Shown: positions 5,376 through 35,247, numbered from the stretch's first letter. The stretch: 62,171 bases of DNA from Bacteroidota bacterium (GCA_030706565.1 JAUZOH010000001.1:1-62171); one strand, 5' to 3'. Made by a program: numbers and translations. The notes: generated from the letters alone by a model not told the origin.

Positions 5376-5978
5376 TTAATTGAACATCTTGTATGCCCGG
5401 GTCGATTCTCTTTCTTCATTGGTTGTCTTGGCTTCAAAATACTGGATCTTCATGACCGTTTGCTGGAAAGATAAGCGTTTGTCCATGTCTTTCAGTTCCC
5501 TTATGCGGTCTGCATCGCCCATGCTGAATTTCCCCGGAGTAAGTATATCCTTTACGGTTGAGATTATTCCTTCTGCACCCTGAACCACGATCAATAACTG
5601 GTCGTTTAGCCTTTTTAATTCTTCAGGGCTTAAGCTCTTTAGTTTTTGTGCTTTTACACTGATTTCATATTGCTCTTTTATTAAATCAACCTGGCGTTGG
5701 TAAACCTTTTTGGTCCAAATTGCAGTTTCCAGGCTGGCATTGATCGTTTTTAATAATTTTTCAGCTTTTTGCAAATACGTTATTGTGGTGGTCAGGGAGG
5801 TTACCATGGAACTTGTATTGGCGACTGTCTGTCCTTCCATGATCGTAGTTTTCACCAGCTGGGCATTATTCACCGGGTCATATACCACCGAGGCCCCTGC
5901 TTGTGGCAAAGCAGTTCTGCCGTTTGTGAGGAACAGGATGATGGATAAAAGCATCATTTTAATGGCTTTCATGTTCAA
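5376..5978 (-). CDS. TraI-like secreted conjugation protein
   Basis: 200 aa with a signal peptide and coiled-coil-like content. It overlaps the traG 3' end and occupies the position of traI in CTnDOT-type operons. Confidence 0.45.
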   Translation of the reverse strand: MNMKAIKMMLLSIILFLTNGRTALPQAGASVVYDPVNNAQLVKTTIMEGQTVANTSSMVTSLTTTITYLQKAEKLLKTINASLETAIWTKKVYQRQVDLIKEQYEISVKAQKLKSLSPEELKRLNDQLLIVVQGAEGIISTVKDILTPGKFSMGDADRIRELKDMDKRLSFQQTVMKIQYFEAKTTNEERESTRAYKMFN

Positions 5979-11094: not shown

Positions 11095-13860
11095 ATGAAA
11101 TTTAAAACCCAACATTTAAGAAATATTATAGATGCTAACAATGATAATCGATTAGCAATTTTTATTGGAGCTGGAGTTTCAAAAAATTCTGAAACGAAAG
11201 GACTAAAACTACCAACATGGCAAGATTTAATTGATGATTTGAAGAAGGATTTAGAATTAACTAGTGAGACTGACTTTTTAAAAATAGCACAACTTTATTA
11301 TCTTGAATTTAAAGAGTATTCATATCTTAAAAAACTAAAAAAATATTTCCCTGATAGCATAAGACCTTCTTCAATACACAAACAAATATTTGATTTAAAT
11401 CCTCAAGTAATTATTACAACAAATTGGGATACAATTCTTGAGAAAACAATAGAAGAAAATGCATATATCTATGATGTAATTCGTTGTGATGAAGATTTAG
11501 TTAAATCCACTATTCAAAAGAAAGTGATTAAAATGCATGGGGATTTTAAAAATCACAATATAGTTTTCAAAGAAGATGATTACTTGAATTATCAATATAA
11601 TTTTCCATTAATCGAAAATTACGTAAAAAGCATTTTGTCTACTCATACGGTACTTTTTCTTGGTTATTCATATAATGATATTGATTTCAAACAAATAATG
11701 AAGTGGTTGCAAAATTATTCAAAAGTACAACCGCCTAGATATCTAACTGTCTTTTATGAAAATTCAACCCAAAATAAGTATTTAGAAAATCATGGAATAA
11801 CCACATTTGTGCTTGATGAACCCAATGGTTCAATGAATCTTCAAAGCGACTATACTGAGAATACAAAGTATTTCTTAGACTTGATAAAAAATGATGAAAG
11901 AATAAACTTCTTAAAAACAGAGAATGACATTATCAATTTTGTTTTCAATAAATTAAAGGTGCTTTCTGAACTAAATGGTATTTTAATTGAACAAATACAA
12001 ACCTCATTGACTAATTGTGGTTTTCTGTATGATGATAGCAATAAAACAATATTGGAATTCCGAGATAAAATACTCACATATGACTTAAATAAAGAAAAGA
12101 GAAATATTTATAAGGAATTTGTAAAAATACTAAATAAGCAAAACGATAAAGAATTATCAAACAAGACTCTGTATAGTATTTTTGAAATTTTAAGTAAAGC
12201 TAATATTCAAGGAATTGTTATCACCGAAGACGACTTATCAACAAGGCAAAAGAAATATATAGTTCTTGATGACTATTTAACAAATAAAGAATTTAATCTT
12301 GAATCAAAGTATCTTGATTTCAATTTTTTAATTGAGGACAAATCAACAAATGATATTTATGAATTGCTTCAAAAATCATTCATTTTATATCAGCTTGAAG
12401 ATTATGAAAAAGCTTATGAGATTGTTGAAAAAACAATAATACAGTGTTTAAAACAGAAAAATTACACTGTTTTATTTATTTCAATGTTTAATAAAAATGT
12501 TCTTCTCTGGAATTTGAAATATGGCTTTTTCCAAAATAGAAAAGCATATGAAAACATTGAAGAATATAACTTAGAAGAAAAGTTTAATCAGCTTCCAAAA
12601 GACTTACAAAAAGCTCTTAAGCCAATTTATAACTTTTTAAACTCTTGTTATTTGTACAAATTTGCGTACAGAATATCAGAAGAATTAAATAAAAAAGAGG
12701 AATCTAAAAAAACTATCAAATCTGGCGGTTTTGTTTTAAACTCTAATATTACTGAATCTTCTTCAAAACATAAAAATCTAATTTTATTTGTACTTCGTAA
12801 TGGAATAATTTTAGAAGGAAGAAGCGAATTTCAAAGTATCAATAAATATTTTCTGAAAATTTCTATTATAAGACAGGTTCAAAATAAAGCGACTACATTT
12901 AATGAAATAGAGTTTTTTTCAGCGATAAAATATTTGTCAAATAAAGAATTAAAGCATCTACTATCTGATTTTTTCAAGTATGATTCTGAACAAAAGGGAA
13001 AATTTGAAATTTCAGAAGAAAATAAAGATTGGTTAATTAATAGGGTATTAATAAATCTTATAAATAGATATATAAATTCCGATAATGCGTTTAACACATT
13101 TGAAAAATACTTAGAGAATACAATCTTCTTACTTTCATTAACAAAACTATCAGATGATGAAATTTCAAAAATTTTAGAAAGCTTTAATATCATTATCGAT
13201 AAAGCTAAAAATACAATTGGAATTTACGAATCAATAAATCTTTTCTTGGAAAACCAATATAATCTTCATAGTACATCCATTAATGAGAGTTCATTACTTA
13301 ATTTGATAAAATCCATAATTAATAAATTTGTAAGCAAGCAATATAATGGATATGATTTTCATGCTATTACACGCAATGAAATTTCGAATTTATATGGTTA
13401 TGCAAGAGAACAAAAAGCAATTTTTAAAGAAAAAGCATTGATTAATAAATTAATTGATGCATCAAAAGAACTACCAATAGAAGAACAATTAAATATTTCA
13501 GAATCTCTTCTTCTTAGTATTTATGATATTTCTACTGATGAAATTAAGACAAAAATTAAAGAATATATTTTGAGCATAAAATCAAGTGAAACAAAAGAAA
13601 AACATGATTATTTAATATTTGAGCTCATCTTAATTATTCGTGATTTTAAAAATTTAGAAACATCTTTAATCAAAGAGCTTGAAGAATATTTTGAACCATA
13701 TAAAGACTCAAAGTCATTTTCTTCAATTTGGTATTCAATAGATGGTCAAATAGATTATTTAATAAAAGAAAAGCAACTAACTCAGCTCAAAGAAGTTTCT
13801 TCAACGATAAAAACGTTAATAGAAAACTTTAAGAAAAGTGAAAGATTTTCAATATTTTAA
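11095..13860 (+). CDS. SIR2-domain protein with a long helical C-terminal region (defence-associated sirtuin-like)
   Basis: 921 aa. The N-terminus carries RLAIFIGAGVSKNS, IITTNWDTILE and VIKMHGDF (SIR2_2-type motifs). About 700 aa of K/E/L/N-rich sequence follow without a P-loop. Confidence 0.75.
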   Translation: MKFKTQHLRNIIDANNDNRLAIFIGAGVSKNSETKGLKLPTWQDLIDDLKKDLELTSETDFLKIAQLYYLEFKEYSYLKKLKKYFPDSIRPSSIHKQIFDLNPQVIITTNWDTILEKTIEENAYIYDVIRCDEDLVKSTIQKKVIKMHGDFKNHNIVFKEDDYLNYQYNFPLIENYVKSILSTHTVLFLGYSYNDIDFKQIMKWLQNYSKVQPPRYLTVFYENSTQNKYLENHGITTFVLDEPNGSMNLQSDYTENTKYFLDLIKNDERINFLKTENDIINFVFNKLKVLSELNGILIEQIQTSLTNCGFLYDDSNKTILEFRDKILTYDLNKEKRNIYKEFVKILNKQNDKELSNKTLYSIFEILSKANIQGIVITEDDLSTRQKKYIVLDDYLTNKEFNLESKYLDFNFLIEDKSTNDIYELLQKSFILYQLEDYEKAYEIVEKTIIQCLKQKNYTVLFISMFNKNVLLWNLKYGFFQNRKAYENIEEYNLEEKFNQLPKDLQKALKPIYNFLNSCYLYKFAYRISEELNKKEESKKTIKSGGFVLNSNITESSSKHKNLILFVLRNGIILEGRSEFQSINKYFLKISIIRQVQNKATTFNEIEFFSAIKYLSNKELKHLLSDFFKYDSEQKGKFEISEENKDWLINRVLINLINRYINSDNAFNTFEKYLENTIFLLSLTKLSDDEISKILESFNIIIDKAKNTIGIYESINLFLENQYNLHSTSINESSLLNLIKSIINKFVSKQYNGYDFHAITRNEISNLYGYAREQKAIFKEKALINKLIDASKELPIEEQLNISESLLLSIYDISTDEIKTKIKEYILSIKSSETKEKHDYLIFELILIIRDFKNLETSLIKELEEYFEPYKDSKSFSSIWYSIDGQIDYLIKEKQLTQLKEVSSTIKTLIENFKKSERFSIF

Positions 13861-17885: not shown

Positions 17886-18293
17886 ATGAATAAAGCCGCA
17901 TTTACTTTAGAAAAATATCGATTTGAGAAAGTAATGATTGATTTTTCAAAAAAATCATCAAATGATTTAGACATCGGTTTTGAACCGTCTGGAAAATTTT
18001 TCTCGTCTGACTCTAGTTATGAACTAAAATTTGTATTTATTGCTCATAACGAAAATCCGAAAAATGCATTTGTTCAAATTGAATGTATTGCTCAGTTTAA
18101 ATTTGAAGAAAACATAAAATTTGAAGAGATCCCATCCTATTTTTACAGAAATAGTATTGCCATAATCTTTCCGTATGTTAGAGCTTTTATTAGTACTGTA
18201 ACTTTACAAGCTAACATTCCACCAATTGTAATTCCAACAATGAATTTATCTTCTTTGGAGAATCCTTTAAAAGAAAATACAATACAGATTTAA
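17886..18293 (+). CDS. SecB-like chaperone
   Basis: 135 aa. ...FVQIECIAQFKFEE...YFYRNSIAIIFPYVRAFISTVTLQANIPPIVIPTMNL matches the C-terminal LFPY.R...S.....GFPP..L.P.NF signature of SecB. Confidence 0.6.
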   Translation: MNKAAFTLEKYRFEKVMIDFSKKSSNDLDIGFEPSGKFFSSDSSYELKFVFIAHNENPKNAFVQIECIAQFKFEENIKFEEIPSYFYRNSIAIIFPYVRAFISTVTLQANIPPIVIPTMNLSSLENPLKENTIQI

Positions 18294-18305
18294 CTTGACA
18301 TTACA

Positions 18306-18884
18306 TTGAAAGTAAAAACCGTATACCAAACACTTGAAGATAGAGGAAATCCAGATGAGATAGAACAAAATGCACCGTTTCCATGTCATTGGGAGAATGC
18401 TTGGCTTGGTGACGGTTACTACTTTTGGGATACCTTTATAGAAAATGCTCATTGGTGGGGAAATGTAAGATATAAAAATAACTATGTAATTTGTAGCTTC
18501 AGTTGTGACTTTGATACAGCAACCTGTTTCGATTTAGTTGGAGATACAGAACACATGTTAGACTTCTCCAATAGCATTGAATTTCTAAAACAGCAAAAAT
18601 TAATTGATGTTAATACAACTGTCCCTAGAGTCTTAGCTCTTTTGAAAAGCAAAGTCAAAGGATTTAATTATCAGGCGATAAGAGTTTATGGCATAAAATC
18701 AATTTCAGATTTTAAACAAGACTTTGAGAAATATAGACATCGATTGGTTTTTGAACTTTCAAAACCCCAATATTTAGACTATAAACCTGCAATACAAATT
18801 TGCATATTTGACAAAAAAGGAATTAACCTAAGAAATACAAAAATTGAATTTCCAGACGAATACAATTATGACTTTTTAGTTTAA
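18306..18884 (+). CDS. Hypothetical protein (candidate toxin/effector of the cassette)
   Basis: 192 aa with a TTG start. It carries AWLGDGYYFWDTFIENAHWWG, a G.G.YF-type motif reminiscent of ART-like/DUF3990-type folds (weak). Hairpin repeat copy B follows. Confidence 0.45.
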   Translation: MKVKTVYQTLEDRGNPDEIEQNAPFPCHWENAWLGDGYYFWDTFIENAHWWGNVRYKNNYVICSFSCDFDTATCFDLVGDTEHMLDFSNSIEFLKQQKLIDVNTTVPRVLALLKSKVKGFNYQAIRVYGIKSISDFKQDFEKYRHRLVFELSKPQYLDYKPAIQICIFDKKGINLRNTKIEFPDEYNYDFLV

Positions 18885-20336: not shown

Positions 20337-20879
20337 CTATTTACAGTAGTTTTGTGGCAGAAGTTCTGCCAATCTATTGGCTTTGTGCTCAGAAATACGT
20401 GAGAGAACGTCCCTGAACCAGGTAAAGGGTTCTACTTTGTTGAGTTTGCAGGATCCAATAAAGGAGTACATCATGGCCGCCCTTTGTGCGGCTTCATGTG
20501 ATCCGGCAAATAGATAATTCTTCCTTCCCAGAGCCACCGGACGTATGCTATTCTCCACAAGGTTGTTATCTATTTCATAACGGCCATCTTCCATGTAACG
20601 CAACAGCCGGGGCCATAAGGCCAGGGTATAAGATATAGCTCCCCCTATAACACTTTTGGGCAAAACCTGTTCAAGGTTTGCTTTTAGCCAGGTTTCCATT
20701 TTGGTTAGCACGGGCAATGCTTTTTCCTCCCTCAGGGATTTTCGGGCTGTTGCATCCATCCCCTGTTCTCGGGCACATCGCTCCATGGCATACAAATCCT
20801 GCATCAGCATAAGCATCTGCTTTGCCCTATCCGGATCATTATCTAAGGAATCTTCAAATTTACGCCTGGCATGCGCCAT
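20337..20879 (-). pseudogene. IS66-family transposase, C-terminal fragment only
   Basis: AHARRKFEDSL...YAMER...LENSIRPVALGRKNYLFAGSHEAAQRAAMMYSFIGSCKLNKVEPFTWFRDVL is the conserved IS66 Tnp C-terminus. The N-terminal ~300 aa are absent and the region is GC-rich. Confidence 0.85.
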
Positions 20880-21014: not shown

Positions 21015-22340
21015 CTATAGGGTTCTGTTTTTAACCCAAAACGCCCTTAAGGGATAAACAAGTTTATATATTAGACGTTGTTCTTGTGTAATAATTTCGC
21101 AGCTACCATTATATAAACTTTTCATAGAAATATCTTTACCGTATGTAGTTAATAATTTTGACGAAAAATTAACTTCAGCAAAGTAAAAGTCATTATCCGG
21201 GACAAGAGATATCTTATTGACAAAACCGCAAAGCATACCATATTCCATATATGGAAAATCATCTAATTTAATAATAACTTTCTGTCCAACCTTAACTTTG
21301 CCAGAACTTTGTATAGGTAATTGTATCTTGGCAATATAAGAAATTGAACCAGAAGGTATGATAGTAAATACGACATCCCCTTTTTTTACATTTTGGTTTT
21401 TGTTCCATATACGAGTAAAAGTCATTATGCCATCTGTTGTTGATTTTAAAATATATGTTTTTTCCCAATCAGAAATATGTGAAAGTAAAACTTCATAGCT
21501 TTCTTTAAGATTATTATGTTGTTGGGTTGTTTGTTCTAAACGTTGAGATGATAAATCGAGAATATCCTGATTTAATTTTGTAACTTGAATGTTTGCATTA
21601 ATAATTTCGGTATTTACATTTTCAAGAGTACTTTTTGACTGCAAATAGGTAGTCCGAGATTTCTCAAAATCAGCTAGCGCTATAACTTCATGTTTATATA
21701 ATAATGAATCTCGCCTGAATTGACTTCTCGCAATACTTAATTGTTCTTTTGAATAATACAATTTTTTATTTAATTTTTTGATATAGCTATTTTCTTGAGA
21801 TATCTCGAAGTTAAGGCTTGCTATTTTTTTTCGTTGGTAATTAAGAAAAACAAAATTGTTATAGTCACTTAATTGTTTTATGAAAGATGAATAATATGGC
21901 TGAATCTCGCCTAATTTAAAATAATCATATGTAATTCCTGAAAAGATAGTATCCTTAAACTGAAATATTGAGTTTAAGGAGTCTGTTAAGTTTTTAATTG
22001 CGAAAACTTCCTTATAATCGGCATTACTCTCTATAACTGCTAATATCTCATTTTCATTTACATGTTGATTGTCCCTAATAAATATTTTTTCAATCCGACC
22101 ATCTGAATGTGCTACTATAGAAGAAGGAATATTATTTGCAGTAATTTGAACTTTTCCTGAAACGATATCAGGGTATTTAAAAAACCAGCATCCTATAAGG
22201 ATTATCATTAGAAAAATAAATATTATGGTAATGCCAAATCTGACAAACCATTTAGGTACAATTCCAATAATATCATTAATCTCATTGTTCTGTAACCTAA
22301 GTTTTCCAATTTCTGTTTTTAGTGGTTTATTATTTTCCAT
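21015..22340 (-). CDS. HlyD-family secretion adaptor (bacteriocin export)
   Basis: 441 aa with an N-terminal TM helix and a long coiled-coil middle region, directly downstream of the C39-ABC transporter. Confidence 0.75.
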   Translation of the reverse strand: MENNKPLKTEIGKLRLQNNEINDIIGIVPKWFVRFGITIIFIFLMIILIGCWFFKYPDIVSGKVQITANNIPSSIVAHSDGRIEKIFIRDNQHVNENEILAVIESNADYKEVFAIKNLTDSLNSIFQFKDTIFSGITYDYFKLGEIQPYYSSFIKQLSDYNNFVFLNYQRKKIASLNFEISQENSYIKKLNKKLYYSKEQLSIARSQFRRDSLLYKHEVIALADFEKSRTTYLQSKSTLENVNTEIINANIQVTKLNQDILDLSSQRLEQTTQQHNNLKESYEVLLSHISDWEKTYILKSTTDGIMTFTRIWNKNQNVKKGDVVFTIIPSGSISYIAKIQLPIQSSGKVKVGQKVIIKLDDFPYMEYGMLCGFVNKISLVPDNDFYFAEVNFSSKLLTTYGKDISMKSLYNGSCEIITQEQRLIYKLVYPLRAFWVKNRTL

Positions 22341-22343
22341 TGT

Positions 22344-24533
22344 TTAATTACCAAGTTCAAGTTGGTTTTTAACTAAATTGAAATAAGAACCTTTTATTGA
22401 AGTAAGTTCATGATGAGTGCCTATTTCGGTAACACAACCATTGTTTAGAACAATAATTTGATCAGCATTTTTAACGGTACTTAAACGATGAGCTACCACA
22501 ACAACTGTCTTACCTTTAAAAAATTGTAAGAGATTTTCCATTATGATACGCTCATTATTCGCATCGAGTGCATTGGTAGCCTCGTCAAAAAACACGAATT
22601 CTGGGTTTTTATAAATAGCCCTTGCAATTAAAATTCGCTGCTTTTGTCCCTGACTAAGTCCATTACCTTCCTTCCCAATTATTGTATTATAACTTAATGG
22701 CAAACTCTCTATGAAGTCTTGAATGTTCGCCATTTTTACTGCATATAGAAGTTTTTCTTTGTTTATTTTTTCATCAGAAATGGCTATGTTCGAAGCAATA
22801 GTTTCGGAAAAAATAAAGCCATCCTGCATAACAACCCCACACTGACTTCGCCACCAACTATTGTTGTAGTTCAGTAAATTAATGTCTCCTATATTAACAC
22901 TGCCTTCAACCGGTAAATAAAAACCAAGCAAAAGTTTTAACAAGGTTGTCTTGCCACTTCCACTTGCACCCACAATCGCCGTTGTTTTTTTCTGAGGGAT
23001 AGTTATATTTACATTATTTAACACTTTTGGAGAATGAGGCCCCTCATATTGATAAGTGACATTTTTTAGTATAATACTTCTATTTTCGGGTAGATATGTA
23101 AGCTTAGTTTCTTCTGGTATTTCTTCATCTTTTTTAATATGGATTTCACAAAGTCGCTCTATGCTTATTTTAGCAAGTTGACTACTTTGAATAAATTCAA
23201 TCATTTGTTCTATAGGACTATTTAATTGTCCTATAATGTATTGAATTGCCAGCATCATACCCAATGTCATTTGGCCGTTGAGTACAGCAGTAGCTGCCAT
23301 TATAGTGATAATAATATTTTTAGTTTCATTAATAAAAACAGATCCTGATATTTGGTATTGTGTTACAGACAGATTATTAAGGTTGATATAAAATAAATTA
23401 GCTTGTATACCTTCCCATTTCCATCGTTTCTGACGTTCGCAATTATTAAGCTTTATCTCTTGCATACCTTCAATTAACTCTAGCGTATTATTTTGATTAG
23501 CCGATAGTTGAGCAAACCTTCTATAATCCAAATCTTTCCTCTTTTTCATAAACAAAAACATCCACAGACAATATAATGTACTACCGAGCATAAATACAAT
23601 GAAAATTTTTATCTCATAAATAGCCAAAACTACCCCAAAGATAATAAGGTTAAAACTTGAAAAAAGCACACCTAACATTTGAGAAGAAAAGAATTGTTCT
23701 AGCCTTTCATGATCATTCAAACGCTGCAAAATATCCCCAGTCATTTTGTTGTCGAAAAAACTTATCGGTAGCCTCATTAATTTGGAAAGGAAATCAGATA
23801 AAATTGAAATATTTATTCTTGCACTAATATGTATAAGTATCCTAGACCGAATAAAATCTACAGTTGTTCGACTTATAAATAATGTCATTTGCGCCATCAG
23901 GGCAAGGTAGATAAAATTTAGGTCCCGTGTATTGATACCAGTATCAACAATAGCTTGAGAAATAAAAGGAAAAATTAATTGAACAATACTACTAAATAAT
24001 AAACTCACAAATAATTGAAAGAAAAATTTCTGGTAGACTAAAATATATGAATATAAGAACTTAAAACCGGATGTTTCTTTGTTATTAGCTATTGTTTTGT
24101 AGAATTCTGACGTAGGTTCAAGCAACAAACAAGTACCAAAATCTCCATCATTATTTGAATTATTAATCCAACCTCTTTTAAAATCGCTAATTGAAAATTT
24201 TAAAAGTCCATATGCTGGATCGGAAACATATACCAGTTTTTTTTTTATTTTATAAACAACGATAAAATGGTTTTGGTTCCAATGGACAATGCATGGTAAT
24301 TGAGCCTCATTTGCCAAAGACTCAAACTTTAGATTTACACCAATTGTTCTGAAACCTATTTTTTCAGCCGCTTCACTAATACCTAATAATGAAACACCTT
24401 CACGCGTAATAAAACAATTTTCACGAAGATATTGAAGGTTATAATTTTTGCCATAAAACTTTGACACCATATGAAGACATGATGGGCCGCAATCTGTCTG
24501 ATCATGTTGATGGATGAATGGGAAGGATGACAT
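22344..24533 (-). CDS. Peptidase C39-domain ABC transporter (double-glycine leader cleaving exporter)
   Basis: 729 aa with N-terminal QTDCGPSCL (C39 catalytic Cys), a six-TM region, Walker A GASGSGKTT, signature LSQGQKQR and Walker B FVFFDEATNALD. Confidence 0.9.
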   Translation of the reverse strand: MSSFPFIHQHDQTDCGPSCLHMVSKFYGKNYNLQYLRENCFITREGVSLLGISEAAEKIGFRTIGVNLKFESLANEAQLPCIVHWNQNHFIVVYKIKKKLVYVSDPAYGLLKFSISDFKRGWINNSNNDGDFGTCLLLEPTSEFYKTIANNKETSGFKFLYSYILVYQKFFFQLFVSLLFSSIVQLIFPFISQAIVDTGINTRDLNFIYLALMAQMTLFISRTTVDFIRSRILIHISARINISILSDFLSKLMRLPISFFDNKMTGDILQRLNDHERLEQFFSSQMLGVLFSSFNLIIFGVVLAIYEIKIFIVFMLGSTLYCLWMFLFMKKRKDLDYRRFAQLSANQNNTLELIEGMQEIKLNNCERQKRWKWEGIQANLFYINLNNLSVTQYQISGSVFINETKNIIITIMAATAVLNGQMTLGMMLAIQYIIGQLNSPIEQMIEFIQSSQLAKISIERLCEIHIKKDEEIPEETKLTYLPENRSIILKNVTYQYEGPHSPKVLNNVNITIPQKKTTAIVGASGSGKTTLLKLLLGFYLPVEGSVNIGDINLLNYNNSWWRSQCGVVMQDGFIFSETIASNIAISDEKINKEKLLYAVKMANIQDFIESLPLSYNTIIGKEGNGLSQGQKQRILIARAIYKNPEFVFFDEATNALDANNERIIMENLLQFFKGKTVVVVAHRLSTVKNADQIIVLNNGCVTEIGTHHELTSIKGSYFNLVKNQLELGN

Positions 24534-24538
24534 TTCTA

Positions 24539-25594
24539 TTATTTATCTAACCATGTACTAACTGACGTTAAAATTGATGGCCAATTAAACTCATTTTTAA
24601 TGATTTTACCAGATGCGTCATAGGTATTGGAAAAATAGTTATGATCTAAATTATGCAAACGTAATATTGTAAGATTATCCTTTTGATTTCTATAAAAACA
24701 TAATGGCAAATAATCATTTAAGGCAGAGGCATCGTCATTAGTACCATATACAATTAAAATAGGTTTATCCACCTTTAATAGATAGTTAATTGGAGGATAA
24801 AAATTAAAAGAATAATCATTTAGAAAATTAAAATAATTGTCGTCTTGTGGAAATGAATCCTTTTTTAAGTACCACTGACTGACCAATTTTTGATGCTGAT
24901 ATATTGAATCGAGCTTTTGTTGTACATTATTAGATGGCAATTCATTTAACATTTCTTTCTTCTTTAAAGAATATATAGATATACTTTGCCGATCAAAAGG
25001 ATTTGACGACATACAAACCACTTTAGTGATTAATTTGGAAAAATTACACGCAAGTTTTGCAGCTACTGAATATCCTTGGGAATGTCCGACTATATAAACT
25101 TTATTAGTATCAATAAAATCTTTTTTTAATAAATAAGTTATTACTTGAGCTGAAGCCTTAACATAATAATCTAAATTATCATTACGAATAAATTTTGATC
25201 TTACTTGTTGGTTATCTGCAATTTGATTTCTGTGATTAAAATCATAAGATATTGGTAACCCGGGCTTTGAGATTATTACGATATGGTATTTTTCCATAAA
25301 ATCTTTTGGAAATAATGAAGATACGGAACAAAAAAAGTCTTTACCATCAACAAAAAATAATGGACTCTGTCCGGAACCTTGAATAAAAAGCAGCATTGCT
25401 TTTTTGGAAGAAATAGGAGAACTTACAATAAAACGAATAGAATCTATGGTCGATTCTTTCGAAGTATCTTTAATTGAGAAATAATTGAAACCACACTTAT
25501 TAATTGAAATTGATTCTTTTTCTATTTGAGCATTGACAATTTGAAAAGAGAATAAAATAACAGCCAATAAATTAAACATTTTCATAGTATCCAA
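24539..25594 (-). CDS. Secreted alpha/beta-hydrolase-fold protein
   Basis: 351 aa with a signal peptide and nucleophile elbow VGHSQGYS (GxSxG). It overlaps the rSAM gene by 23 nt. Confidence 0.55.
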   Translation of the reverse strand: MDTMKMFNLLAVILFSFQIVNAQIEKESISINKCGFNYFSIKDTSKESTIDSIRFIVSSPISSKKAMLLFIQGSGQSPLFFVDGKDFFCSVSSLFPKDFMEKYHIVIISKPGLPISYDFNHRNQIADNQQVRSKFIRNDNLDYYVKASAQVITYLLKKDFIDTNKVYIVGHSQGYSVAAKLACNFSKLITKVVCMSSNPFDRQSISIYSLKKKEMLNELPSNNVQQKLDSIYQHQKLVSQWYLKKDSFPQDDNYFNFLNDYSFNFYPPINYLLKVDKPILIVYGTNDDASALNDYLPLCFYRNQKDNLTILRLHNLDHNYFSNTYDASGKIIKNEFNWPSILTSVSTWLDK

Positions 25595-26732
25595 TTTTTT
25601 CTATTTTACAATCATTAATTATATTTTCAGGTAAATCAGCCAATAATCTATTTTGTATATGCCTGATAAGATTATAAATTTGGTTACAGTATACGGAAGG
25701 ATTATCAAAATTATTTTTATTTGAAAACCTATGAGCTAATTGCCCCCCTCCGCATAATTCTTTAATTTCACATTCTAGACAATTTTTAGATAAATAATCA
25801 TCAGAATGAGCATAATAATAATTTTTAAATAGATTATCTTTAAATAGATCATCTAACTCATTTCTATCTACATTTAAATTAGTTCTCGTAAATCCATTAC
25901 CACATATCCTTAATGAGTCAACAGCTTCAATATCACCATTTGTTTTTACTGTTAAAACGGCATTTTCATTTGTTCCAAACATCTCGTTACCTAATTCAGT
26001 ATATCCCAAAATTTTCTGACAAAGGAAATTGAATGGACGAAACATGGGTCTAGTTTCTGTATCATCATACCATAAGTCAAACAGTTTGATTAACCATTCA
26101 CCAACTTTAGGAATATCATTGGGGTCTTGAACTTGATCATAATTCAAATCTGGAAATAAAAAACTTCCATGAGTAATCCCTATTTTTTTAAAATGTTCAT
26201 ATACTTTAATAGGCTCCTCTTTGGTGTTTATAACACTTAAAATGGCAACTTCATTATAACTATCTTTTAAAGTTTCAATTCCTTTTAAGATATCAGTATA
26301 TGCAGAGGTTTTATCTTTTCTGTATACTCTATTTTCATTTGCAAATGGTGTCCCGTCCATGCTTACCCCAATATTAATTTTTAATCTTTTAAACAAATCA
26401 CACCATTCTTCATTTAATAATGTACCATTAGTTTGCAGAGCAAAATCTATTTTTATATCTGTAATAATTTTGTTTGCTAATTCAATAAAATCAGAATAAA
26501 ATTTTTTGCCTACCAATAACGGTTCACCACCGTGAAAAATTAACAGAAACGTTTTAAGATTATGCTTTTTTATATGATTATTCAATCTATAAAGGAGTTT
26601 TTCAGATGTTCTTAGATCAAGAAAGGAAGGTTCTTTCTTAAAAGATTTATCTCCTTTGTTAAATACGTAACAATAACTACAATTTAGGTTACATTTACTT
26701 GTAACTTTTAAAACCAAATTTTCTAATTTCAT
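25572..26732 (-). CDS. Radical SAM / SPASM-domain peptide maturase
   Basis: 386 aa with CNLNCSYCY (CX3CX2C) at the N-terminus and a C-terminal Cys cluster CLECEIKELCGGGQLAHR...YCNQ. Confidence 0.85.
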   Translation of the reverse strand: MKLENLVLKVTSKCNLNCSYCYVFNKGDKSFKKEPSFLDLRTSEKLLYRLNNHIKKHNLKTFLLIFHGGEPLLVGKKFYSDFIELANKIITDIKIDFALQTNGTLLNEEWCDLFKRLKINIGVSMDGTPFANENRVYRKDKTSAYTDILKGIETLKDSYNEVAILSVINTKEEPIKVYEHFKKIGITHGSFLFPDLNYDQVQDPNDIPKVGEWLIKLFDLWYDDTETRPMFRPFNFLCQKILGYTELGNEMFGTNENAVLTVKTNGDIEAVDSLRICGNGFTRTNLNVDRNELDDLFKDNLFKNYYYAHSDDYLSKNCLECEIKELCGGGQLAHRFSNKNNFDNPSVYCNQIYNLIRHIQNRLLADLPENIINDCKIEKIGYYENV

Positions 26733-26787
26733 ATTAAAATGTATTTAAAAAACAGGGTTATTTTTACATAACCCTGTTAAATTAAGA

Positions 26788-26952
26788 TTATTTTCTTACA
26801 TAGGTAGTATCAGGATATGCCACATTATCATATTTAGGAGGTTGAAGTGAAGTACCTCCTTTAAAATTTGCAAGTGACCTTTTTGATAACAATTCAAAAA
26901 TTTCTGATGAGTGTTTTTTTAACTCACTTCTTGTTAAAGAAACTTTTTTCAT
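26788..26952 (-). CDS. RiPP precursor peptide with a double-glycine leader
   Basis: Internal Met of track ORF 26788-27138 gives MKKVSLTRSELKKHSSEIFELLSKRSLANFKGG|TSLQPPKYDNVAYPDTTYVRK. It lies 55 nt upstream of the rSAM gene, and a C39 exporter is in the same operon. Confidence 0.6.
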   Translation of the reverse strand: MKKVSLTRSELKKHSSEIFELLSKRSLANFKGGTSLQPPKYDNVAYPDTTYVRK

Positions 26953-27085
26953 GATTATAATTTTATTAAATATTAGTCTACTCGTTACCCTTTTCGACTT
27001 CCGGGACATAAAATTATGGCCATTAATTATTATTGCATTACAAATTTTATTATTTACACTCTGATATTTTCGGAGTATAAAATAA

Positions 27086-27328
27086 TTACTCAATTTTTTT
27101 CTTTTTAAAGGTAAATACAAAAAAACAAGGTTCTTCATAACAATAAGATTCTAAATATTTATTATAATAGATTGGAGCACCGTATTTTTTCATAAAAGCA
27201 AGCGTCTGATAAATGACTGATTCGGACAAGCTCAATCTATTAGCTAATTCTTTTGGAGTCCCAGTTGCTTGTAATCTAATTAATTGATCGATTCTTTCAA
27301 TTCTTTGCAAATATCTCACAATACTCAT
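27086..27328 (-). CDS. Small HTH transcriptional regulator
   Basis: Taken from the internal Met: MSIVRYLQRIERIDQLIRLQATGTPKELANRLSLSESVIYQTLAFMKKYGAPI (wHTH-like), upstream of the RiPP operon. Confidence 0.45.
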   Translation of the reverse strand: MSIVRYLQRIERIDQLIRLQATGTPKELANRLSLSESVIYQTLAFMKKYGAPIYYNKYLESYCYEEPCFFVFTFKKKKIE

Positions 27329-27796: not shown

Positions 27797-28265
27797 TTAT
27801 TCCGAACTTTTAATTATCCAATAACCAGTTTTACGAGAACCTTTTCGTTCAATTAATCCAATATCTTTAAGGCTTTCGATAATTTTTTCAACTGCCCTGC
27901 TTGAAATCCCAATTGAAACAGCTAGTTCGGAAGCTGTAATATGAGGATTATTCCGAATTAAGTTTACGACCTTTTCCGAACTTTCGTTTAGTTTTGTTAA
28001 AGTATTGTCAATTTTAGATTTCACATTATTAAAATCATGTGTTCCTTTAAAAGCTGGATGAATCAGAAAATCAACTTCAAAAAAAGTGCGCTTTTCATCG
28101 AAATCAAAAACAGGCTAAGGCGAACCATTATCTTTCATTGCTTTTTTAATTCGGGGAATACCTGTTGCTTTTCCTTCGGTAAGATAAAGTTCTTTGAGAA
28201 AATCACCCAGACGGCGGTTTCGGTAACGGCGAGGTTTTATGATACCCAATTTAAAAGCTCCTAAC
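27797..28265 (-). pseudogene. Remnant of a HATPase_c_4 / winged-HTH (AlbA_2-type) regulator
   Basis: Minus-strand translation gives ...IIKPRRYRNRRLGDFLKELYLTEGKATGIPRIKKAMKDNGSP*PVFDFDEKRTFFEVDFLIHPAF..., continuing into ORF 27797-28024 (wHTH). It has an in-frame stop and no N-terminal domain. Confidence 0.5.
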
Positions 28266-29528: not shown

Positions 29529-32500
29529 TTATAGTTTTATGATTTTTGATATCTGGAAGCTGTTGTCCTTTAATGTGATTTTAATCAAATACAACCCAGG
29601 TTTGAAATCAAAAAGATTACCATGATATTCGCCGGAATTGATCATGAGTTTCTTAACCGTCAGGCCTATCGAATTAATAAATTCTACTTCTTTCATATCC
29701 AGTGAAGTTTCAATATTCAATACATCATTTACTGCAGTAGGATATATCCGAATCTTTGGCCTAATGGTGTTTTCAGTTATAGCTGATTTAAGGGGATCAT
29801 AAATGGTAACTGCCTTTGCATTAAGGTAGGAATCCATACAATTGTTTGCGCTTGTTGCAATAAGTTGAACTGTCTTATCTCCAGGACTATAATAGTTGAA
29901 ATAAATATCCTTATCCGTGTACGAATAGTTTTCCAATTTCCATAGATAACTAGTCGCTCCGGAACTTGCATTAGAATATTTAACCTGTTCGCCAATTGCA
30001 AAAGAATCCCGTTCCGTAGTAAAACCGGCTTTTATCTTGTCCACGTTTAAATTAACCTGTTGGGCATCGCTCAAGCAATTCTGGTTATTTTTGGCTATGA
30101 TATATAGAATTTGATCATTTTGTATATTTTGAACTGAATAATTGGAACCGGTTTGTAGTAAATTTTTATTGGCATCATACCAACCATATGAAAAATCGGA
30201 ACCTGCAGATAAATTTAGATTTGAACCCCGGCAATAAATTGAATTGTAAGAAACCGCAGGTAGCGGCAATGCAGGCATTACACTAATCAAAACCGGCGAA
30301 GTATAAGCACTGCCACAATTCGAATCCGTTACTTTCCTCCTGAAATAGCTGGTACCGGTAATATTACCGGATTGAAAACTTGCACCATTAGCCAGTGTAA
30401 TATCTGTATATATTGAATTATCGTACGCCAGCTGCCATTGATAAGTGAAATTGTTAAATCCTCCGCTTGCCACATTTCCGGATAACAATTGCGGGGAAGT
30501 ATTATAGCAAATTGTTTGAGCCTGACCAATAACGCCAGGATCGATGATCCCTTTGACTTCAATTTTCAGGGAATCACTTGTCGCAGTTCCACAATTATTT
30601 GTAACCACTCTCTTATAATAGGTTGTTTGCGTAAGGCTTGTTGGAATATAACTGGAAGTTGAAGCACCAGGTATATTATTCCAAATCGAACCATTTACAG
30701 AATATTTCCATTGATAGTTAAATATCCCATCACCACCACTTGCAGATGTCCCTGTAAGTCCGGCAGGTATGGAAGAACTACAAATAACCTGGGAATTGTA
30801 TATCTCACCCGGATCAAGCTTTCCATAAACAGTTATGGTAGCCGGGGAACTGGTTTTACTACCACAACCTGATCCTGAAGTTGTAATTCTTCTAAAATAA
30901 GTGGTGGCGGTCAAAACTCCGGATTGATAATTAGCACTTAAAGCACCCGCAATAGTTAACCACTTGCTATTGTCTAGGGATGATTCCCATTGATAGGTAT
31001 ATTTCCCATCACCTCCTGTTGGACTGGTACAAACTATTTGTGCAGGTGTCCCATTATAGCACAACGTTTGGGCTTGAGACAATATTCCAGCATTCAAGGC
31101 TCCATAAACCGTTATGGTAACCGGTGAACTGCTCATACTCCCGCAACTTCCAGCGGTGGTTACCCGTTGATAATAAGTCGTGGCAGTCAAAGCACCAGGT
31201 TGATAATCTGCACTTGAAGCCATAGCAATATTGTACCATGAGGTTGCATCCAGTGATGACTGCCATTGATAGGTATATGTACCGTTTCCTCCTGTCGGAC
31301 TGGTACCAACTAATTTTGTGGGGATAGCCCCGTTACATACTGTTTGTGACGTTGAAATTGTTCCTGAGGTTAAAGTACCATAAACTGTTATAGTTACCGG
31401 CAAACTGGTTTTGCTTCCACAACCTGATCCGGAAGTGGCCACCCTATGGTAATAAGTTGTAGCGGTTAAAGCTTCGGGCTGATAACTTGCACTTGTAGCC
31501 CCAAAAATATCTGACCAAGTATCGTTGTCAGTTGATTTCTGCCATTGATAACCATAAACACCATCCCCGCCAGTTGGTGAAGTTCCCAATAGTTGAGAAG
31601 GGGTAATGCCATTGCATATTGTTTGGGATGAAGAAATGCTACCTGAAGTCAAAACATCGTAAACTATTATTTTAACAGGTGAACTTGTGATACTCCCACA
31701 ACCTGTATTTGCTACCCTCCTATAATAAGTTGTAGAAATCAAAGCATCAGGTTGATAACTTGCATTCACACTGCCAGCAATATCCGACCATTTGTTATTA
31801 TCAGTAGATGATTGCCATTGATAGGTATATTTCCCATCGCCTCCTGTCGGACTGGTACCGAACAGTTGTGAAGGAATTGACCCATTACATAGTATTTGGG
31901 AGGAGGATACTGTTCCAGCGTTCAAAGCTCCATAAACCGTTATAGTCACCGGTGAACTGGTTACACTCCCGCAACTTCCAGAGGTGGTTACCCGTTGATA
32001 ATAAGTTGTGGCGGTCAAAGCACCAGGTTGATAATCTGCACTTGAAGCCATAGCAATATTAGACCATGAGGTTGCATTCAGTGATGATTGCCATTGATAG
32101 GTATATGTACCGCTTCCTCCTGTCGGACTGGTACCACTTAATTTTGCAGGGATAGCCCCGTTACATACTGTCTGCGACGTTGAAATTGTTCCTGAGGTTA
32201 AAGCACCATAAACTGTTATAGTTACCCTCAAACTGGTTTTGCTTCCACAACCTGATCCGGAAGTTACAATTCTGTGATAGTAAGTCGTTGTTTTTAATGG
32301 TTCGGGTTGGTAACTTGCACTTGTAGCCCCAAAAATATCTGACCAAGTATCGTTGTCAGTTGATTTCTGCCATTGATAACTATAAACACCATCCCCACCT
32401 GTTGGCAAAGTACCCAATATTTGTGAAGGGGGAATCCCATTGCATATTGTTTGGGATGAAGAAATGCTACCTGAAGTCAAAGCATCGTAAACTGTTATTT

Positions 32501-34649
32501 TAACAGGTGAACTTGTGATACTCCCACAACCTGTACTTGCTACTCTCCTATAATAAGCTGTAGCTATCAAGGCATCAGGTTGATAACTTGCATTCACACT
32601 GCCAGCAATATCGGACCATTTGCTATTATCAGTAGATGATTGCCATTGATACGAATATTTTCCATCACCACCCGTTGCACCAGTACCGACAAGTTGTGAA
32701 GGAGTTGATCCATTACATAGTATTTGAGAGGAGGATATTGTTCCAGCATTCAAAGCTCCATAAACCGTTATAGTCACCGGTGAACTGGTCATACTCCCGC
32801 AACTTCCAGCGGTGGTTACCCGTTGATAATAAGTCGTTGCGGTCAAAGCACCAGGTTGATAATCTGCACTTGAAGCCATAGCAATATTAGACCATGAGGT
32901 TGCATCCGTTGATGACTGCCATTGATAAGTATAGGTACCGCTTCCTCCTGTCGGACTGGTACCGGCTAATTTTGCAGGGATAGTCCCGTTACACACTGTC
33001 TGCGACGTTGAGATTGTCCCGGATGTCAAAGGATCGTAAACTGTAATGGTAACCGGCAAACTGGTTTTGCTTCCACAACCTGATCCGGAAGTCACAATCC
33101 TGTGATAGTATGTTGTCTTTGTCAATGCTTCGGGTTGATAACCGGAACTGGTAGCACCAATTATATCTGACCAGGAACTATTGTCTAAAGAAGATTGCCA
33201 TTGATAACCATAAATACCGTCCCCACCTGTTGGTAAAGTCCCCAATAGTTGAGAAGGGGTAATGCCGTTGCATATTGTTTGAGATGAAGAAATGCTTCCC
33301 GAAGTCAAAGCATCGTAAACTGTTATGGTCACCGGAGAACTAATTACACTACCACAACCTGATCCGGACGTGGCTACCCTTCTATAAAATACGGATTCAT
33401 TCAAAGTGCCCGGCTGATAATTAGATCCTACTGCCCCTGAAATATTTGACCAATTAGTCCCATCATTTGAGGATTGCCATTGATAAGTATAAGTCCCATC
33501 TCCACCTGCCGGACTGACACCAACCAATTGTGCAGGCGTAGTATTATAACACAACGTCTGTGAAGATGACAAGGTACCGGAAGTTAAGGCATCATACACC
33601 TTTATGGCTACCATATTTGATTCTGCTGAATTCACGCCCGAAGTACATATTCGTTTATAATAAGTGGAAGCTGTGAGCCCGCCGACTGAATAAGTTAACC
33701 CGTTAGCAGAAGGTATATCTTGAAAATAAATTCCATCTTTGGATGACTGCCATTGATAGGTATATACCCCGGTCCCACCACTTCCTGAAGAGATATTGGA
33801 AAGATTCAGATTTGCGTAATTACAAATACTCTGGGATGTACCTATCGTACCCCCGGAAACATCAGGCAATACATTAATGGTTATCTCATTGGTAAACATT
33901 GATGTTCCACATTTCCTGGGGCTGTCCATCCTTCGAAATATGGTTGAAGTAAGCAGCCTAGAAGGAGTATAATTATAGGAAGTTGCCCCATAAATACTTT
34001 TATACACATCCCCGGGTGTTTTTTCCTGCCATTGATAGGAAAAGATTCCATCGCTGCCTGTTGCCTCCATCCCGTTAAATTCACCAGGTGTTGTGTTATA
34101 CTCAATTTGCTTTGTAGTAACTGATGTTCCATTAGTCACCACGCTGACGGAACCTACCTTAGGTTTTGGGTAAAATGTTCTGGCAACGACCATAATATTT
34201 TGCCAGGGGGCAACAGTAGAATAAGTATTTGCATTTTTATAATAGGTGGTATAAAATATGACCACATAAAACACTTTAGGTGAAGTAAAACCCGACCAAT
34301 TATAATTTGGAAAGAGATCTTCGACAGAACAAAGAGTAGATTGTGTTGTGCTATAAGCAGATGATGCCAGGGATTGTCCCATGCCAATGCCGACTAAATT
34401 ATCATAGAGTTCAAAATCATCAAAAGAAAGGATATAACCACTTTGAACATTGGCCGGATCATAGTAGGTCTCGAATTCAAATTTACCATTGGTACAGGTG
34501 TACGTACTTGATTCATCAAACAGCCAATAATGCCAAGTTGAAGAATAAATTTTTAAAACCGGTGAAGTATTTTGACTTACCTCCTGCCCTACGGTTCTAG
34601 CATAAATAAATGTTAGAAAAGTTAAAATGGGTATAATTTTTCTCATCAT
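29529..34649 (-). CDS. Giant T9SS-sorted repeat surface protein (adhesin-like)
   Basis: 1706 aa with a signal peptide and ~13 tandem ~92-aa units (..SSQT.CNG..P..L.G..PTGG.G.Y.YQWQSS.D...W..I.GA...YQP..L...TYY.R......CGS..S.PV.I.VY). The C-terminal YPTAVNDVLNIE...GLYLIKI... is a T9SS CTD. Confidence 0.85.
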   Translation of the reverse strand: MMRKIIPILTFLTFIYARTVGQEVSQNTSPVLKIYSSTWHYWLFDESSTYTCTNGKFEFETYYDPANVQSGYILSFDDFELYDNLVGIGMGQSLASSAYSTTQSTLCSVEDLFPNYNWSGFTSPKVFYVVIFYTTYYKNANTYSTVAPWQNIMVVARTFYPKPKVGSVSVVTNGTSVTTKQIEYNTTPGEFNGMEATGSDGIFSYQWQEKTPGDVYKSIYGATSYNYTPSRLLTSTIFRRMDSPRKCGTSMFTNEITINVLPDVSGGTIGTSQSICNYANLNLSNISSGSGGTGVYTYQWQSSKDGIYFQDIPSANGLTYSVGGLTASTYYKRICTSGVNSAESNMVAIKVYDALTSGTLSSSQTLCYNTTPAQLVGVSPAGGDGTYTYQWQSSNDGTNWSNISGAVGSNYQPGTLNESVFYRRVATSGSGCGSVISSPVTITVYDALTSGSISSSQTICNGITPSQLLGTLPTGGDGIYGYQWQSSLDNSSWSDIIGATSSGYQPEALTKTTYYHRIVTSGSGCGSKTSLPVTITVYDPLTSGTISTSQTVCNGTIPAKLAGTSPTGGSGTYTYQWQSSTDATSWSNIAMASSADYQPGALTATTYYQRVTTAGSCGSMTSSPVTITVYGALNAGTISSSQILCNGSTPSQLVGTGATGGDGKYSYQWQSSTDNSKWSDIAGSVNASYQPDALIATAYYRRVASTGCGSITSSPVKITVYDALTSGSISSSQTICNGIPPSQILGTLPTGGDGVYSYQWQKSTDNDTWSDIFGATSASYQPEPLKTTTYYHRIVTSGSGCGSKTSLRVTITVYGALTSGTISTSQTVCNGAIPAKLSGTSPTGGSGTYTYQWQSSLNATSWSNIAMASSADYQPGALTATTYYQRVTTSGSCGSVTSSPVTITVYGALNAGTVSSSQILCNGSIPSQLFGTSPTGGDGKYTYQWQSSTDNNKWSDIAGSVNASYQPDALISTTYYRRVANTGCGSITSSPVKIIVYDVLTSGSISSSQTICNGITPSQLLGTSPTGGDGVYGYQWQKSTDNDTWSDIFGATSASYQPEALTATTYYHRVATSGSGCGSKTSLPVTITVYGTLTSGTISTSQTVCNGAIPTKLVGTSPTGGNGTYTYQWQSSLDATSWYNIAMASSADYQPGALTATTYYQRVTTAGSCGSMSSSPVTITVYGALNAGILSQAQTLCYNGTPAQIVCTSPTGGDGKYTYQWESSLDNSKWLTIAGALSANYQSGVLTATTYFRRITTSGSGCGSKTSSPATITVYGKLDPGEIYNSQVICSSSIPAGLTGTSASGGDGIFNYQWKYSVNGSIWNNIPGASTSSYIPTSLTQTTYYKRVVTNNCGTATSDSLKIEVKGIIDPGVIGQAQTICYNTSPQLLSGNVASGGFNNFTYQWQLAYDNSIYTDITLANGASFQSGNITGTSYFRRKVTDSNCGSAYTSPVLISVMPALPLPAVSYNSIYCRGSNLNLSAGSDFSYGWYDANKNLLQTGSNYSVQNIQNDQILYIIAKNNQNCLSDAQQVNLNVDKIKAGFTTERDSFAIGEQVKYSNASSGATSYLWKLENYSYTDKDIYFNYYSPGDKTVQLIATSANNCMDSYLNAKAVTIYDPLKSAITENTIRPKIRIYPTAVNDVLNIETSLDMKEVEFINSIGLTVKKLMINSGEYHGNLFDFKPGLYLIKITLKDNSFQISKIIKL
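31050..33540. repeat. Higher-order tandem repeat, period 828 bp (three ~92-aa units) x3
   Basis: The landmark gccattgataggtatatgtaccg... recurs at 31262, 32090 and 32918, exactly 828 nt apart. Confidence 0.8.
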
Positions 34650-34704: not shown

Positions 34705-35247
34705 CTAAAAGAAAATGCGAAACCCTAATCCGTATGAAATATAAGAACTACGAATAAGGCTTTTTCTCATGAAATTTTGATCCAGGGCTAAATCCAGACA
34801 AAGTTTATTGGTCAGGAAATATTCACAATGGGTACCCAGGCTTAAACCATAAATAAAATCAGACTGATGACCACTGTCGATATCGAAAAGCCTTTCTTTA
34901 AGAATCTCCTGTCCGCCAAATAACCCCAAATCAGCGTTACAGAAAATGCTTTTGCGATAAGAAAAAAAATTAGCCTTACCCGTTAAACAAAGCTTATGGG
35001 TAGAAAAATCGGTATAATGAAACCGGCCGTATTCAAAAGAATAGGTAAGATCAGAGAAAAAATATTTTGTGAAATAGTATGAATAACCTCCGGAAAAGTA
35101 ATGTCCCCTGGTTGTAGAACCCAGTGACAGGATTAAACCATTGCTTCCTTTCGAGTGTCTGGCAAAAAAATTCGGATTATCACCACAATAGGAATTTATC
35201 AAAACGACATATAGGAATAACGTTTGTAGGGACAGAATTTTTTTCAT
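34705..35247 (-). CDS. Small outer-membrane beta-barrel-like protein
   Basis: 180 aa with a signal peptide, alternating aromatic/Gly-rich strands and a C-terminal ...GLGFRIFF. Confidence 0.45.
   Translation of the reverse strand: MKKILSLQTLFLYVVLINSYCGDNPNFFARHSKGSNGLILSLGSTTRGHYFSGGYSYYFTKYFFSDLTYSFEYGRFHYTDFSTHKLCLTGKANFFSYRKSIFCNADLGLFGGQEILKERLFDIDSGHQSDFIYGLSLGTHCEYFLTNKLCLDLALDQNFMRKSLIRSSYISYGLGFRIFF

Follow-up and report, generated by a model that had tools for sequence, protein, structure and literature searches.

The operon and its genes

We have analyzed a stretch of 62,171 nucleotides (nt) from a Bacteroidota bacterium (GCA_030706565.1 JAUZOH010000001.1:1-62171), hereafter the window, and all positions given are those of the whole stretch. 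By gene calling and reading of the sequence we found six co-oriented genes at 21015-27328, all on the minus strand. They very probably make up a pathway for a ribosomally made, post-translationally modified peptide (RiPP) that would be modified by a radical S-adenosylmethionine (rSAM) enzyme and exported by a peptidase-containing ATP-binding cassette (ABC) transporter (PCAT). The original prediction had read here an rSAM RiPP operon whose precursor carries a leader with a double-glycine (GG) site, and both the anatomy of the six genes and the conservation of the small open reading frame (ORF) coding for the precursor support it. From the upstream end, the genes and features are the following:

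27086..27328, minus strand: helix-turn-helix (HTH) regulator, 80 amino acids (aa); ATG at 27328, with the mechanical ORF running to 27448
26788..26952, minus strand: precursor peptide gene, 54 aa; leader 26854-26952, core 26791-26853 (TSLQPPKYDNVAYPDTTYVRK), stop codon 26788-26790
26751..26778, minus strand: hairpin resembling a terminator, in the precursor-rSAM spacer; stem of 11 bp, loop of 6 nt, followed by TTTTTT
25572..26732, minus strand: rSAM peptide maturase, 386 aa; predicted multiple cyclophane synthase
24539..25594, minus strand: alpha/beta-fold serine hydrolase, 351 aa from TTG (348 aa from the ATG at 25585); overlaps the rSAM gene; predicted secreted or periplasmic
22344..24533, minus strand: C39 peptidase-containing ABC transporter (PCAT), 729 aa; Pfam Peptidase_C39, ABC_membrane and ABC_tran
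21015..22340, minus strand: HlyD-family membrane-fusion adaptor, 441 aa; TIGR01843 (E 4e-24) and Pfam HlyD_3

Compared with their homologs, none of the six ORFs is truncated or disrupted, and the catalytic and cluster-binding residues are all there.

The precursor peptide and its family

The precursor gene lies within a 116-aa ORF (26788-27138, minus strand), and the internal ATG at 26952 gives exactly the leader MKKVSLTRSELKKHSSEIFELLSKRSLANFKGG followed by the core TSLQPPKYDNVAYPDTTYVRK, as the original prediction had read them. The 116-aa form was rejected in favor of the 54-aa one because the homologs all start at MKK... The first 33 residues, the last two of them GG, form the leader. Its hydrophobic residues F-15, L-12, L-7 and F-4 fit the pattern by which PCAT and ComA recognize their substrates, that is, hydrophobic positions at -4/-7/-12/-15 (PMC10885120). 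The core has 21 residues, none of them Cys. Its Tyr residues stand at 41, 46 and 51, an exact five-residue spacing, and the three Tyr-x-x motifs noticed before (YDN, YPD and YVR) correspond to Y41-D-N43, Y46-P-D48 and Y51-V-R53.

We searched for similar peptides in homologous loci, taken as the DNA around rSAM homologs from reference genomes and individual assemblies. Directly upstream of the rSAM gene there was an ORF of 50-71 aa in every relative with at least 46% rSAM identity, with the exception of L172/L173, and the upstream small ORF was likewise there in Sphingobacterium (L009), whose rSAM enzyme is 42% identical. In all, the small ORF, the GG site and the Tyr block recur upstream of homologous rSAM genes at more than 15 independent loci. 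Lack of conservation beside homologous rSAM genes had been named beforehand as what would speak against the precursor, and the opposite was found. In L172 a divergent candidate with a GG leader (…SYNKIAPIPYTKSSK) lies about 1.3 kb upstream of the rSAM gene, beyond a transposase fragment.

The leaders of the family follow the pattern MKK[VI]SL..[DE]L......[FL]LSKK.[LM]..I.GG. An alignment of 14 relatives, plus 5 further members, defines a core block [Y/W]-x-N...Y-[A/P/C/S]-[E/D/N/Q]-[S/T]-[T/C/V]-Y-[V/I]-[R/K] with an invariant middle Tyr. It contains three aromatic-X-X motifs whose third residues are Asn, Asp/Glu and Arg/Lys, mostly known partners in triceptides, the RiPPs with three-residue cyclophanes. 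Around this fixed block the overhangs vary, with 2-18 residues before the first aromatic and 1-30 after YVR in the aligned relatives. Examples are the cores ...PPTYDNVAYADTTYIRK (from a locus with a 70% identical rSAM enzyme) and ...DPPPYSNYAESTYVRK, that of Candidatus Azobacteroides (...WGNSNYAESTYVRR) and that of a Paludibacteraceae metagenome-assembled genome (...SYPDTTYVRGNKPLPP...). The absence of Cys, which had been pointed out before, holds for the window peptide but not across its family, as the block reads YCESTYVRK in L084 and YCDSCYVRK in L177, and in L168 the core begins with Cys.

When 1.84 billion representative proteins were searched exhaustively with a profile, the 5 further members were the only convincing matches; the repeat protein P0165, found in the same search, was a false match. 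A word-index search with the 54-aa peptide retrieved one relative only. Judged from these alignments and searches, the precursor family is real but rare.

The radical SAM enzyme

The rSAM enzyme carries the CX3CX2C motif at C14/C18/C21, invariant in 28 aligned relatives, and matches Pfam Radical_SAM (E 3e-16). Its best curated hidden Markov models (HMMs) were the NCBIfam models YhhB (NF041707; 299 bits, cut-off 445), FxsB (TIGR04269; 277 bits, cut-off 370) and XyeB (TIGR04496; 184 bits, cut-off 450). The anaerobic sulfatase-maturating enzyme (anSME; TIGR03942; 177 bits, cut-off 349) came fourth, followed by GrrM/OscB (TIGR04261; 123 bits, cut-off 310) and AmcB (NF041718; 122 bits, cut-off 425). 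The models of dynobactin, darobactin, ranthipeptide and sactipeptide maturases scored 54-142 bits with cut-offs of 340-720 (DynA 142 bits, DarE 89 bits, sactipeptide and ranthipeptide models at most 98 bits). The same order of models was found in all 28 aligned members of the clade. An identity as anSME was rejected (177 vs. 349 bits, and no sulfatase gene in the operon), and so was a defense-system reading of the enzyme, as the PADLOC pVip matches cover the generic rSAM core only (60 bits). The exclusion of sactipeptide and ranthipeptide chemistry, proposed originally for the Cys-free core, agrees with the scores on PapB (98 bits, cut-off 340), RumMC (54 bits, cut-off 720) and CcpM (85 bits, cut-off 500).

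By sequence, the best match in the Protein Data Bank was the rSAM domain of ChlB (E 2e-55). We compared an AlphaFold2 (AF2) model of the window enzyme, with a predicted local distance difference test (pLDDT) value of 93, to known structures. The ChlB-peptide complexes 9gmc and 9gm3 gave a template modeling score (TM) of 0.88-0.91 with a root-mean-square deviation of 2.1 A, and lower TM values were obtained with anSME (0.77-0.81), the sactisynthase CteB (0.73) and the streptide enzyme SuiB (0.55). On these profile and fold matches the enzyme belongs to the cyclophane-synthase superfamily, within a large and mainly Bacteroidota clade without a curated model. The best 120 database hits are all closer to the window enzyme than to ChlB or YhhB, and we identified no characterized member of the clade. 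In a metagenome scan with the rSAM alignment the relatives among the matches listed had at most 41% identity, one 57% fragment aside. A literature search for enzymes that form three-residue cyclophanes (3-CyFEs) in Bacteroidetes returned nothing relevant, and the clade may already be listed in earlier bioinformatic work.

Five Cys residues in the C-terminal part (C277, C318, C321, C327 and C349) are invariant in the 28 relatives, a number that would allow one auxiliary cluster and leave one Cys over. The enzyme had been described as a SPASM enzyme. The conserved Cys residues agree with that description only in part; Pfam SPASM gave no match and the seven- or eight-Cys motif is incomplete. In the alignment with anSME, both Cys of 'GtCt-Cq' and the last of CkkCkwfrlCkggC are without a Cys counterpart in the window enzyme.

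Around ten triceptide maturases have been characterized (PMC11499958). Links from Tyr-C3 to the C-beta of Asp (YxdB) and of Arg (YhhB, and ChlB on YDR) are known experimentally, as are Asn and Lys as third residues (PMC11002830, PMC11499958, PMC12912966). With the YhhB, FxsB and XyeB models at the top and ChlB as the best structure, three-residue cyclophane chemistry, which had been a guess from the core motifs, is the best-supported reading. We put at roughly 0.6 the probability that the enzyme forms triceptide-type rings on the window core.

A conserved secreted hydrolase

Counted from the TTG start of the hydrolase gene, its overlap with the rSAM gene is 23 nt, as had been noticed; counted from the ATG at 25585, the start of the 348-aa form listed in the protein database, it is 14 nt. 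The protein was already thought to be secreted, and we found at its N-terminus a predicted signal peptide, MKMFNLLAVILFSFQIVNA, followed by a Gln at +1 that is invariant. A Gln in this position is a common feature of exported Bacteroidota proteins. Also invariant is the triad Ser172 (in GHSQG), Asp287 and His318. The family is small, with 40 homologs found, all from Bacteroidota where named.

In the homologous loci a hydrolase gene comes after the rSAM gene, in most cases with an overlap or at a distance of up to 10 nt. We saw this order in every evaluable locus with a window-type precursor (L001, L002, L009, L081-86, L167-171, L174, L176 and L177). L172/L173 have the gene as well, in spite of a divergent candidate peptide, and it was lacking in sister clades whose peptides are of other types. 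The hydrolase is thus a conserved signature partner of the system and not an incidental neighbor, a point that the original prediction had overlooked. In L172 (6201-7667) it is fused to two ricin-B lectin domains, which points to a location outside the cytoplasm. In L177 a methyltransferase gene (2945-3571) is added after the hydrolase gene; the core is one of those with Cys.

Export, hairpin and regulator

The PCAT has a Pfam Peptidase_C39 domain (E 1e-35) and matches PCAT1 (4ry2, E 9e-106) and ComA (8hf4) over its full length. Its C39 catalytic residues Cys15, His89 and Asp105 are present. The pairing of the GG site with a C39-type ABC exporter and the HlyD adaptor, as proposed originally, is therefore borne out by the intact triad as well as by the fit of the leader to the PCAT recognition pattern. 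The HlyD gene comes after the PCAT gene also in L001, L009, L081, L172 and L176.

The spacer between the precursor and rSAM genes is 55 nt long and holds the 11-bp hairpin and then a T-run. A strong hairpin, with stems of 10-22 bp and unrelated sequence, was found in the same spacer in 12 of the 12 loci examined. Such a conserved position fits an attenuator that keeps the peptide transcript in excess, and from its position we infer that the hairpin would act as an attenuator or terminator.

The HTH regulator matches Pfam HTH_11 (E 1e-6). A homolog, 49% identical, occupies the same position in L084-L086, and its start in L084 at an equivalent MSI... supports the start at 27328. Other relatives have a LytTR-domain protein in its place. 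In L084 (4073-4411) the homolog was called with a C-terminal extension containing a leader-like LKKEQLEKIIGG, which may be a second small GG peptide merged by the gene caller. Upstream of the window operon are a 75-aa winged-helix ORF, MarR/HTH_24-like (27797-28024, minus strand), and a short ORF fragment (28115-28249, minus strand), which look like remnants of a larger gene.

Location on a conjugative element

The window contains genes for a TraG P-loop protein (5959-8352), TraO (34705-35247), a type IV coupling protein (47082-48677), DUF5712 (49246-50298) and a Rep3-type replication initiator (52308-53381). It resembles a conjugative plasmid or conjugative transposon of Bacteroidota, on which the operon is cargo. 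The ends of the window have no terminal overlap and a circular plasmid could therefore not be shown; in PLSDB nothing close was found for the 45-62 kb part. At a distance of 135 nt downstream of the HlyD gene, the C-terminal part of an IS66 transposase (profile positions 153-283) is left as a fragment at 20337-20879 on the minus strand, and the G+C content of the operon is 27-32% vs. 35-43% for nearby genes. Both features suggest that the cluster was acquired or rearranged by insertion sequence activity.

Proposed pathway and alternative explanations

We propose the following pathway. By means of the hairpin after its gene, positionally conserved as it is, the precursor would be translated in excess over the enzymes. 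In the cytoplasm the rSAM enzyme would bind the leader, and its 5'-deoxyadenosyl radicals would remove a hydrogen from the C-beta of the third residue in Y41-D-N43, Y46-P-D48 and Y51-V-R53. Each C-beta radical would then add to the Tyr ring, giving up to three three-residue cyclophanes, with a change of -2 Da each; homology to ChlB, YhhB and FxsB-type enzymes and the conserved motif point to this step. The PCAT, whose domains and catalytic residues are seen together with the leader pattern, would cleave after Gly33 and export the 21-residue core with the help of HlyD. Outside the cytoplasm the Ser-Asp-His hydrolase might most likely trim the overhangs, that is, TSLQPP(K) at the N-terminus of the window core and C-terminal tails of 1-30 residues in relatives, in a second processing step like those of CylA and LicP. 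This is the weakest step, and we hold it only tentatively. The product is probably an antagonistic or signaling peptide, in keeping with its carriage on a conjugative element.

Several observations weigh against parts of this pathway. The rSAM enzyme is 30% identical to ChlB and 32% to a PGAP-labeled YhhB on a Vibrio plasmid, and membership in the YhhB, FxsB, XyeB, GrrM/OscB or AmcB family was rejected, as it scores below each curated cut-off. With such low identities and scores the regiochemistry is not safely transferable. The third Tyr is absent in two members of the precursor family (L175 and L003) and so three rings are not universal. Glu is the third residue in most relatives, and we found no precedent for it in the triceptide literature searched. 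Besides, no outer-membrane channel or immunity gene is visible among the operon genes. Tyr-X-X rings do not explain why, between the second Tyr and the third, an S/T-T pair is conserved as strongly as the aromatics; either enzyme might recognize this pair, or it might carry a modification of another kind. The rSAM enzyme might thus make a larger or reversed ring via Ser/Thr-Thr-Tyr, a C-O ether, a Tyr-Arg link or an anSME-like oxidation of Ser/Thr in S-T-Y-V-R. In favor of this are the conserved pair, the scores below all curated cut-offs and the large clade without a characterized member, as well as the rank and fold similarity of anSME, which oxidizes Ser or Cys in an S/C-x-P/A-x-R motif; S-T-Y-V-R shares with it Ser(1) and Arg(5), a weak lead. 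However, the cyclophane models beat anSME by 100-120 bits and ChlB is better by fold, the models of the ether-forming DarE and DarW reach 89-96 bits only and SuiB is a poor fold match. Moreover, the three aromatics with N, D/E and R/K two positions on are conserved as in triceptide substrates. We consider a chemistry other than triceptide rings unlikely.

The hydrolase may also have another role. Its AF2 model (pLDDT 94) has no close structural relative, and the fold matches are mixed, with feruloyl and cinnamoyl esterases, a lipase and S9 peptidase catalytic domains all at TM of about 0.5. Its substrate can therefore not be read from homology, and it may or may not be a peptidase. It could instead destroy re-entering peptide as a self-protection enzyme, or act as an esterase or acyl-transferase on Ser/Thr or Asp/Glu side chains. 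The best sequence and structure matches are indeed esterases (cinnamoyl, feruloyl and chlorogenic-acid), MHETase and lipase, the operon shows no other immunity gene and the conserved E/D-S/T-T stretch offers ester chemistry. On the other hand, the fit is as good for S9 catalytic domains (DPP4, acylaminoacyl peptidase, S9 carboxypeptidase), variable overhangs flanking a fixed core are the expected substrate of a trimming enzyme, and the close coupling of the translation of the hydrolase to that of the maturase points to a biosynthetic role. A non-peptidase role, which seems to us doubtful, though less so than a different rSAM chemistry, would affect one step only and is compatible with triceptide formation by the rSAM enzyme. 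It is also very improbable that the cluster is decaying or silent cargo of a mobile element, with a small ORF that is not expressed and gives no product. The IS66 fragment abutting the 3' end of the operon and its low G+C could be read in this way, as could the absence of consensus promoters above the shuffled expectation (40 sigma-70 sites vs. 43.7 expected, with a consensus that does not cover Bacteroidota promoters). But the ORFs and their catalytic and cluster-binding residues are intact, and the retention of the gene order in distant relatives, at about 50% identity, implies purifying selection. The product of the clade might finally fall outside the triceptide definition, by a Ser/Thr-Thr-Tyr crosslink or by the hydrolase being a new extracytoplasmic RiPP tailoring enzyme (ester-forming, ester-cleaving or a ring-dependent exopeptidase). 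This is improbable on what we have seen; if true, the clade would be a RiPP subclass of its own, spread on conjugative elements of Bacteroidota.

Significance

Triceptides are a young class of RiPPs, and thousands of such pathways are predicted. The best reading of the window system is a new, uncharacterized Bacteroidota branch of triceptide-type rSAM RiPPs with a distinctive conserved hydrolase. What is new here is the presence of this hydrolase after the rSAM enzyme in all evaluable window-type loci, the spacer hairpin in all 12 loci examined and the location on a conjugative element. A stand-alone enzyme predicted to place three Tyr cyclophanes in a 13-residue block would provide a compact and exportable scaffold for macrocyclic peptide engineering, and with the strictly co-occurring secreted hydrolase it can be tested whether a cyclophane peptide is processed outside the cytoplasm. 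From the gene context, that of cargo on a conjugative element, the product may take part in competition or signaling among anaerobic Bacteroidota. Current understanding is not overturned by any of these findings.

Other genes in the window

The window also carries further transposase genes and cargo proteins of the type IX secretion system (T9SS). At 38361-44822 (minus strand) a 2153-aa protein with SpvB, FG-GAP and RHS repeats looks like a polymorphic toxin; its gene overlaps an OmpA-domain ORF (37112-38509, minus strand), and a small protein with a T9SS tail is coded just upstream of it (44882-45361). A 1706-aa protein (29529-34649, minus strand) is made of repeats of about 90 residues, '...TITVY..L..G.IS.SQT.C.G..P..L.G..P.GG.G.Y.YQWQ.S...', and carries a T9SS sorting tail besides SprB and CHU_C Ig-like domains; a 215-aa PKD/Y_Y_Y protein follows it. 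In a stretch with 25-29% G+C, a Lit-like peptidase ORF (10009-10923, plus strand) is followed by a 921-aa SIR2-domain protein matching the PADLOC ThsA models (11095-13860, plus strand), and the two are a possible anti-phage defense pair. A SecB-like small protein (17886-18293, plus strand) and, immediately after it, a 192-aa ORF without Pfam match (18306-18884, plus strand) may be a chaperone-linked two-gene module.

Comparison with known systems

The original prediction had seen a resemblance to the 'GG-Bacteroidales' peptides of TIGRFAMs (TIGR04148/TIGR04149). These have in common with the window system their presence in Bacteroidota, the GG-type leader and the logic of rSAM enzyme plus PCAT, but the identity had to be rejected. 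The window enzyme scores 66 bits on TIGR04148 with a cut-off of 300, the match being limited to the N-terminal rSAM core (residues 2-182), and the window precursor gives no match to TIGR04149 at E<=10; the leaders of 3 of the 14 relatives match it weakly. In a sister rSAM clade with 36-43% identity, from Cytophagales and Sphingobacteriales (L005, L007, L012, L018, L020 and L179), two tandem GG-leader peptides are coded upstream of the rSAM gene. The core of the first contains D-K-[ED]-Y-x-P-x-Y-[ED], and the PCAT gene follows directly after the rSAM gene, with no hydrolase. This is a different, also uncharacterized, family of Tyr-rich peptides.

YhhB (NF041707) is the best-scoring curated model for the window enzyme, yet below its cut-off. 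It links Tyr-C3 and His-C2 to the C-beta of Arg (PMC11002830), and the window core, which ends in Y-V-R, is similar in this respect. However, YhhA (…GAYDRTHNRHNRGQ) is without a GG leader, unlike the window precursor, and in the reference locus (L178) the partner is a 2-oxoglutarate/Fe(II) (2OG-Fe(II)) oxygenase (YhhC), without hydrolase or PCAT. Membership in YhhABC was rejected, as the window precursor has no NCBIfam match and there is no oxygenase in the operon. The 3-CyFEs YxdB, XncB/XyeB, OscB/GrrM and MscB/FxsB make the same kind of link as predicted here, from the ring to the C-beta in aromatic-X-X motifs, in which Asp, Asn, Arg and Ser are known to serve as third residue (PMC11002830). 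They come from other phyla and act on other precursor families than that of the window.

For the steps after modification there are parallels in CylB/CylA and LicT/LicP of class II lanthipeptides, in which the PCAT cleaves at GG or GS and a secreted serine hydrolase then removes a short N-terminal remnant (PMC10885120). CylA and LicP are subtilisin-like proteases of family S8, whereas the window hydrolase is a 35-kDa single-domain alpha/beta hydrolase without a close characterized relative. WprP2, an alpha/beta-fold S9 protease, is encoded beside the cyclophane synthase WprB2, although it is large, unlike the window hydrolase.

ChlA/ChlB from Chryseobacterium (9gm3, 9gmc) share with the window system the Bacteroidota origin. 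The rSAM fold of ChlB is nearly superimposable on the window model, and both enzymes have a common C-terminal CX2CX5C...C pattern ending in CGGG. ChlB places several Tyr-X-X cyclophanes on one precursor, with YDR as its native motif (PMC11499958), but it is fused to an alpha-ketoglutarate/HExxH hydroxylase domain (PMC12912966) whereas the window enzyme is stand-alone. The clade of the latter has besides an extra invariant Cys277 that is not aligned to a Cys in ChlB, and the partners of the window enzyme are the secreted hydrolase and the PCAT with HlyD.

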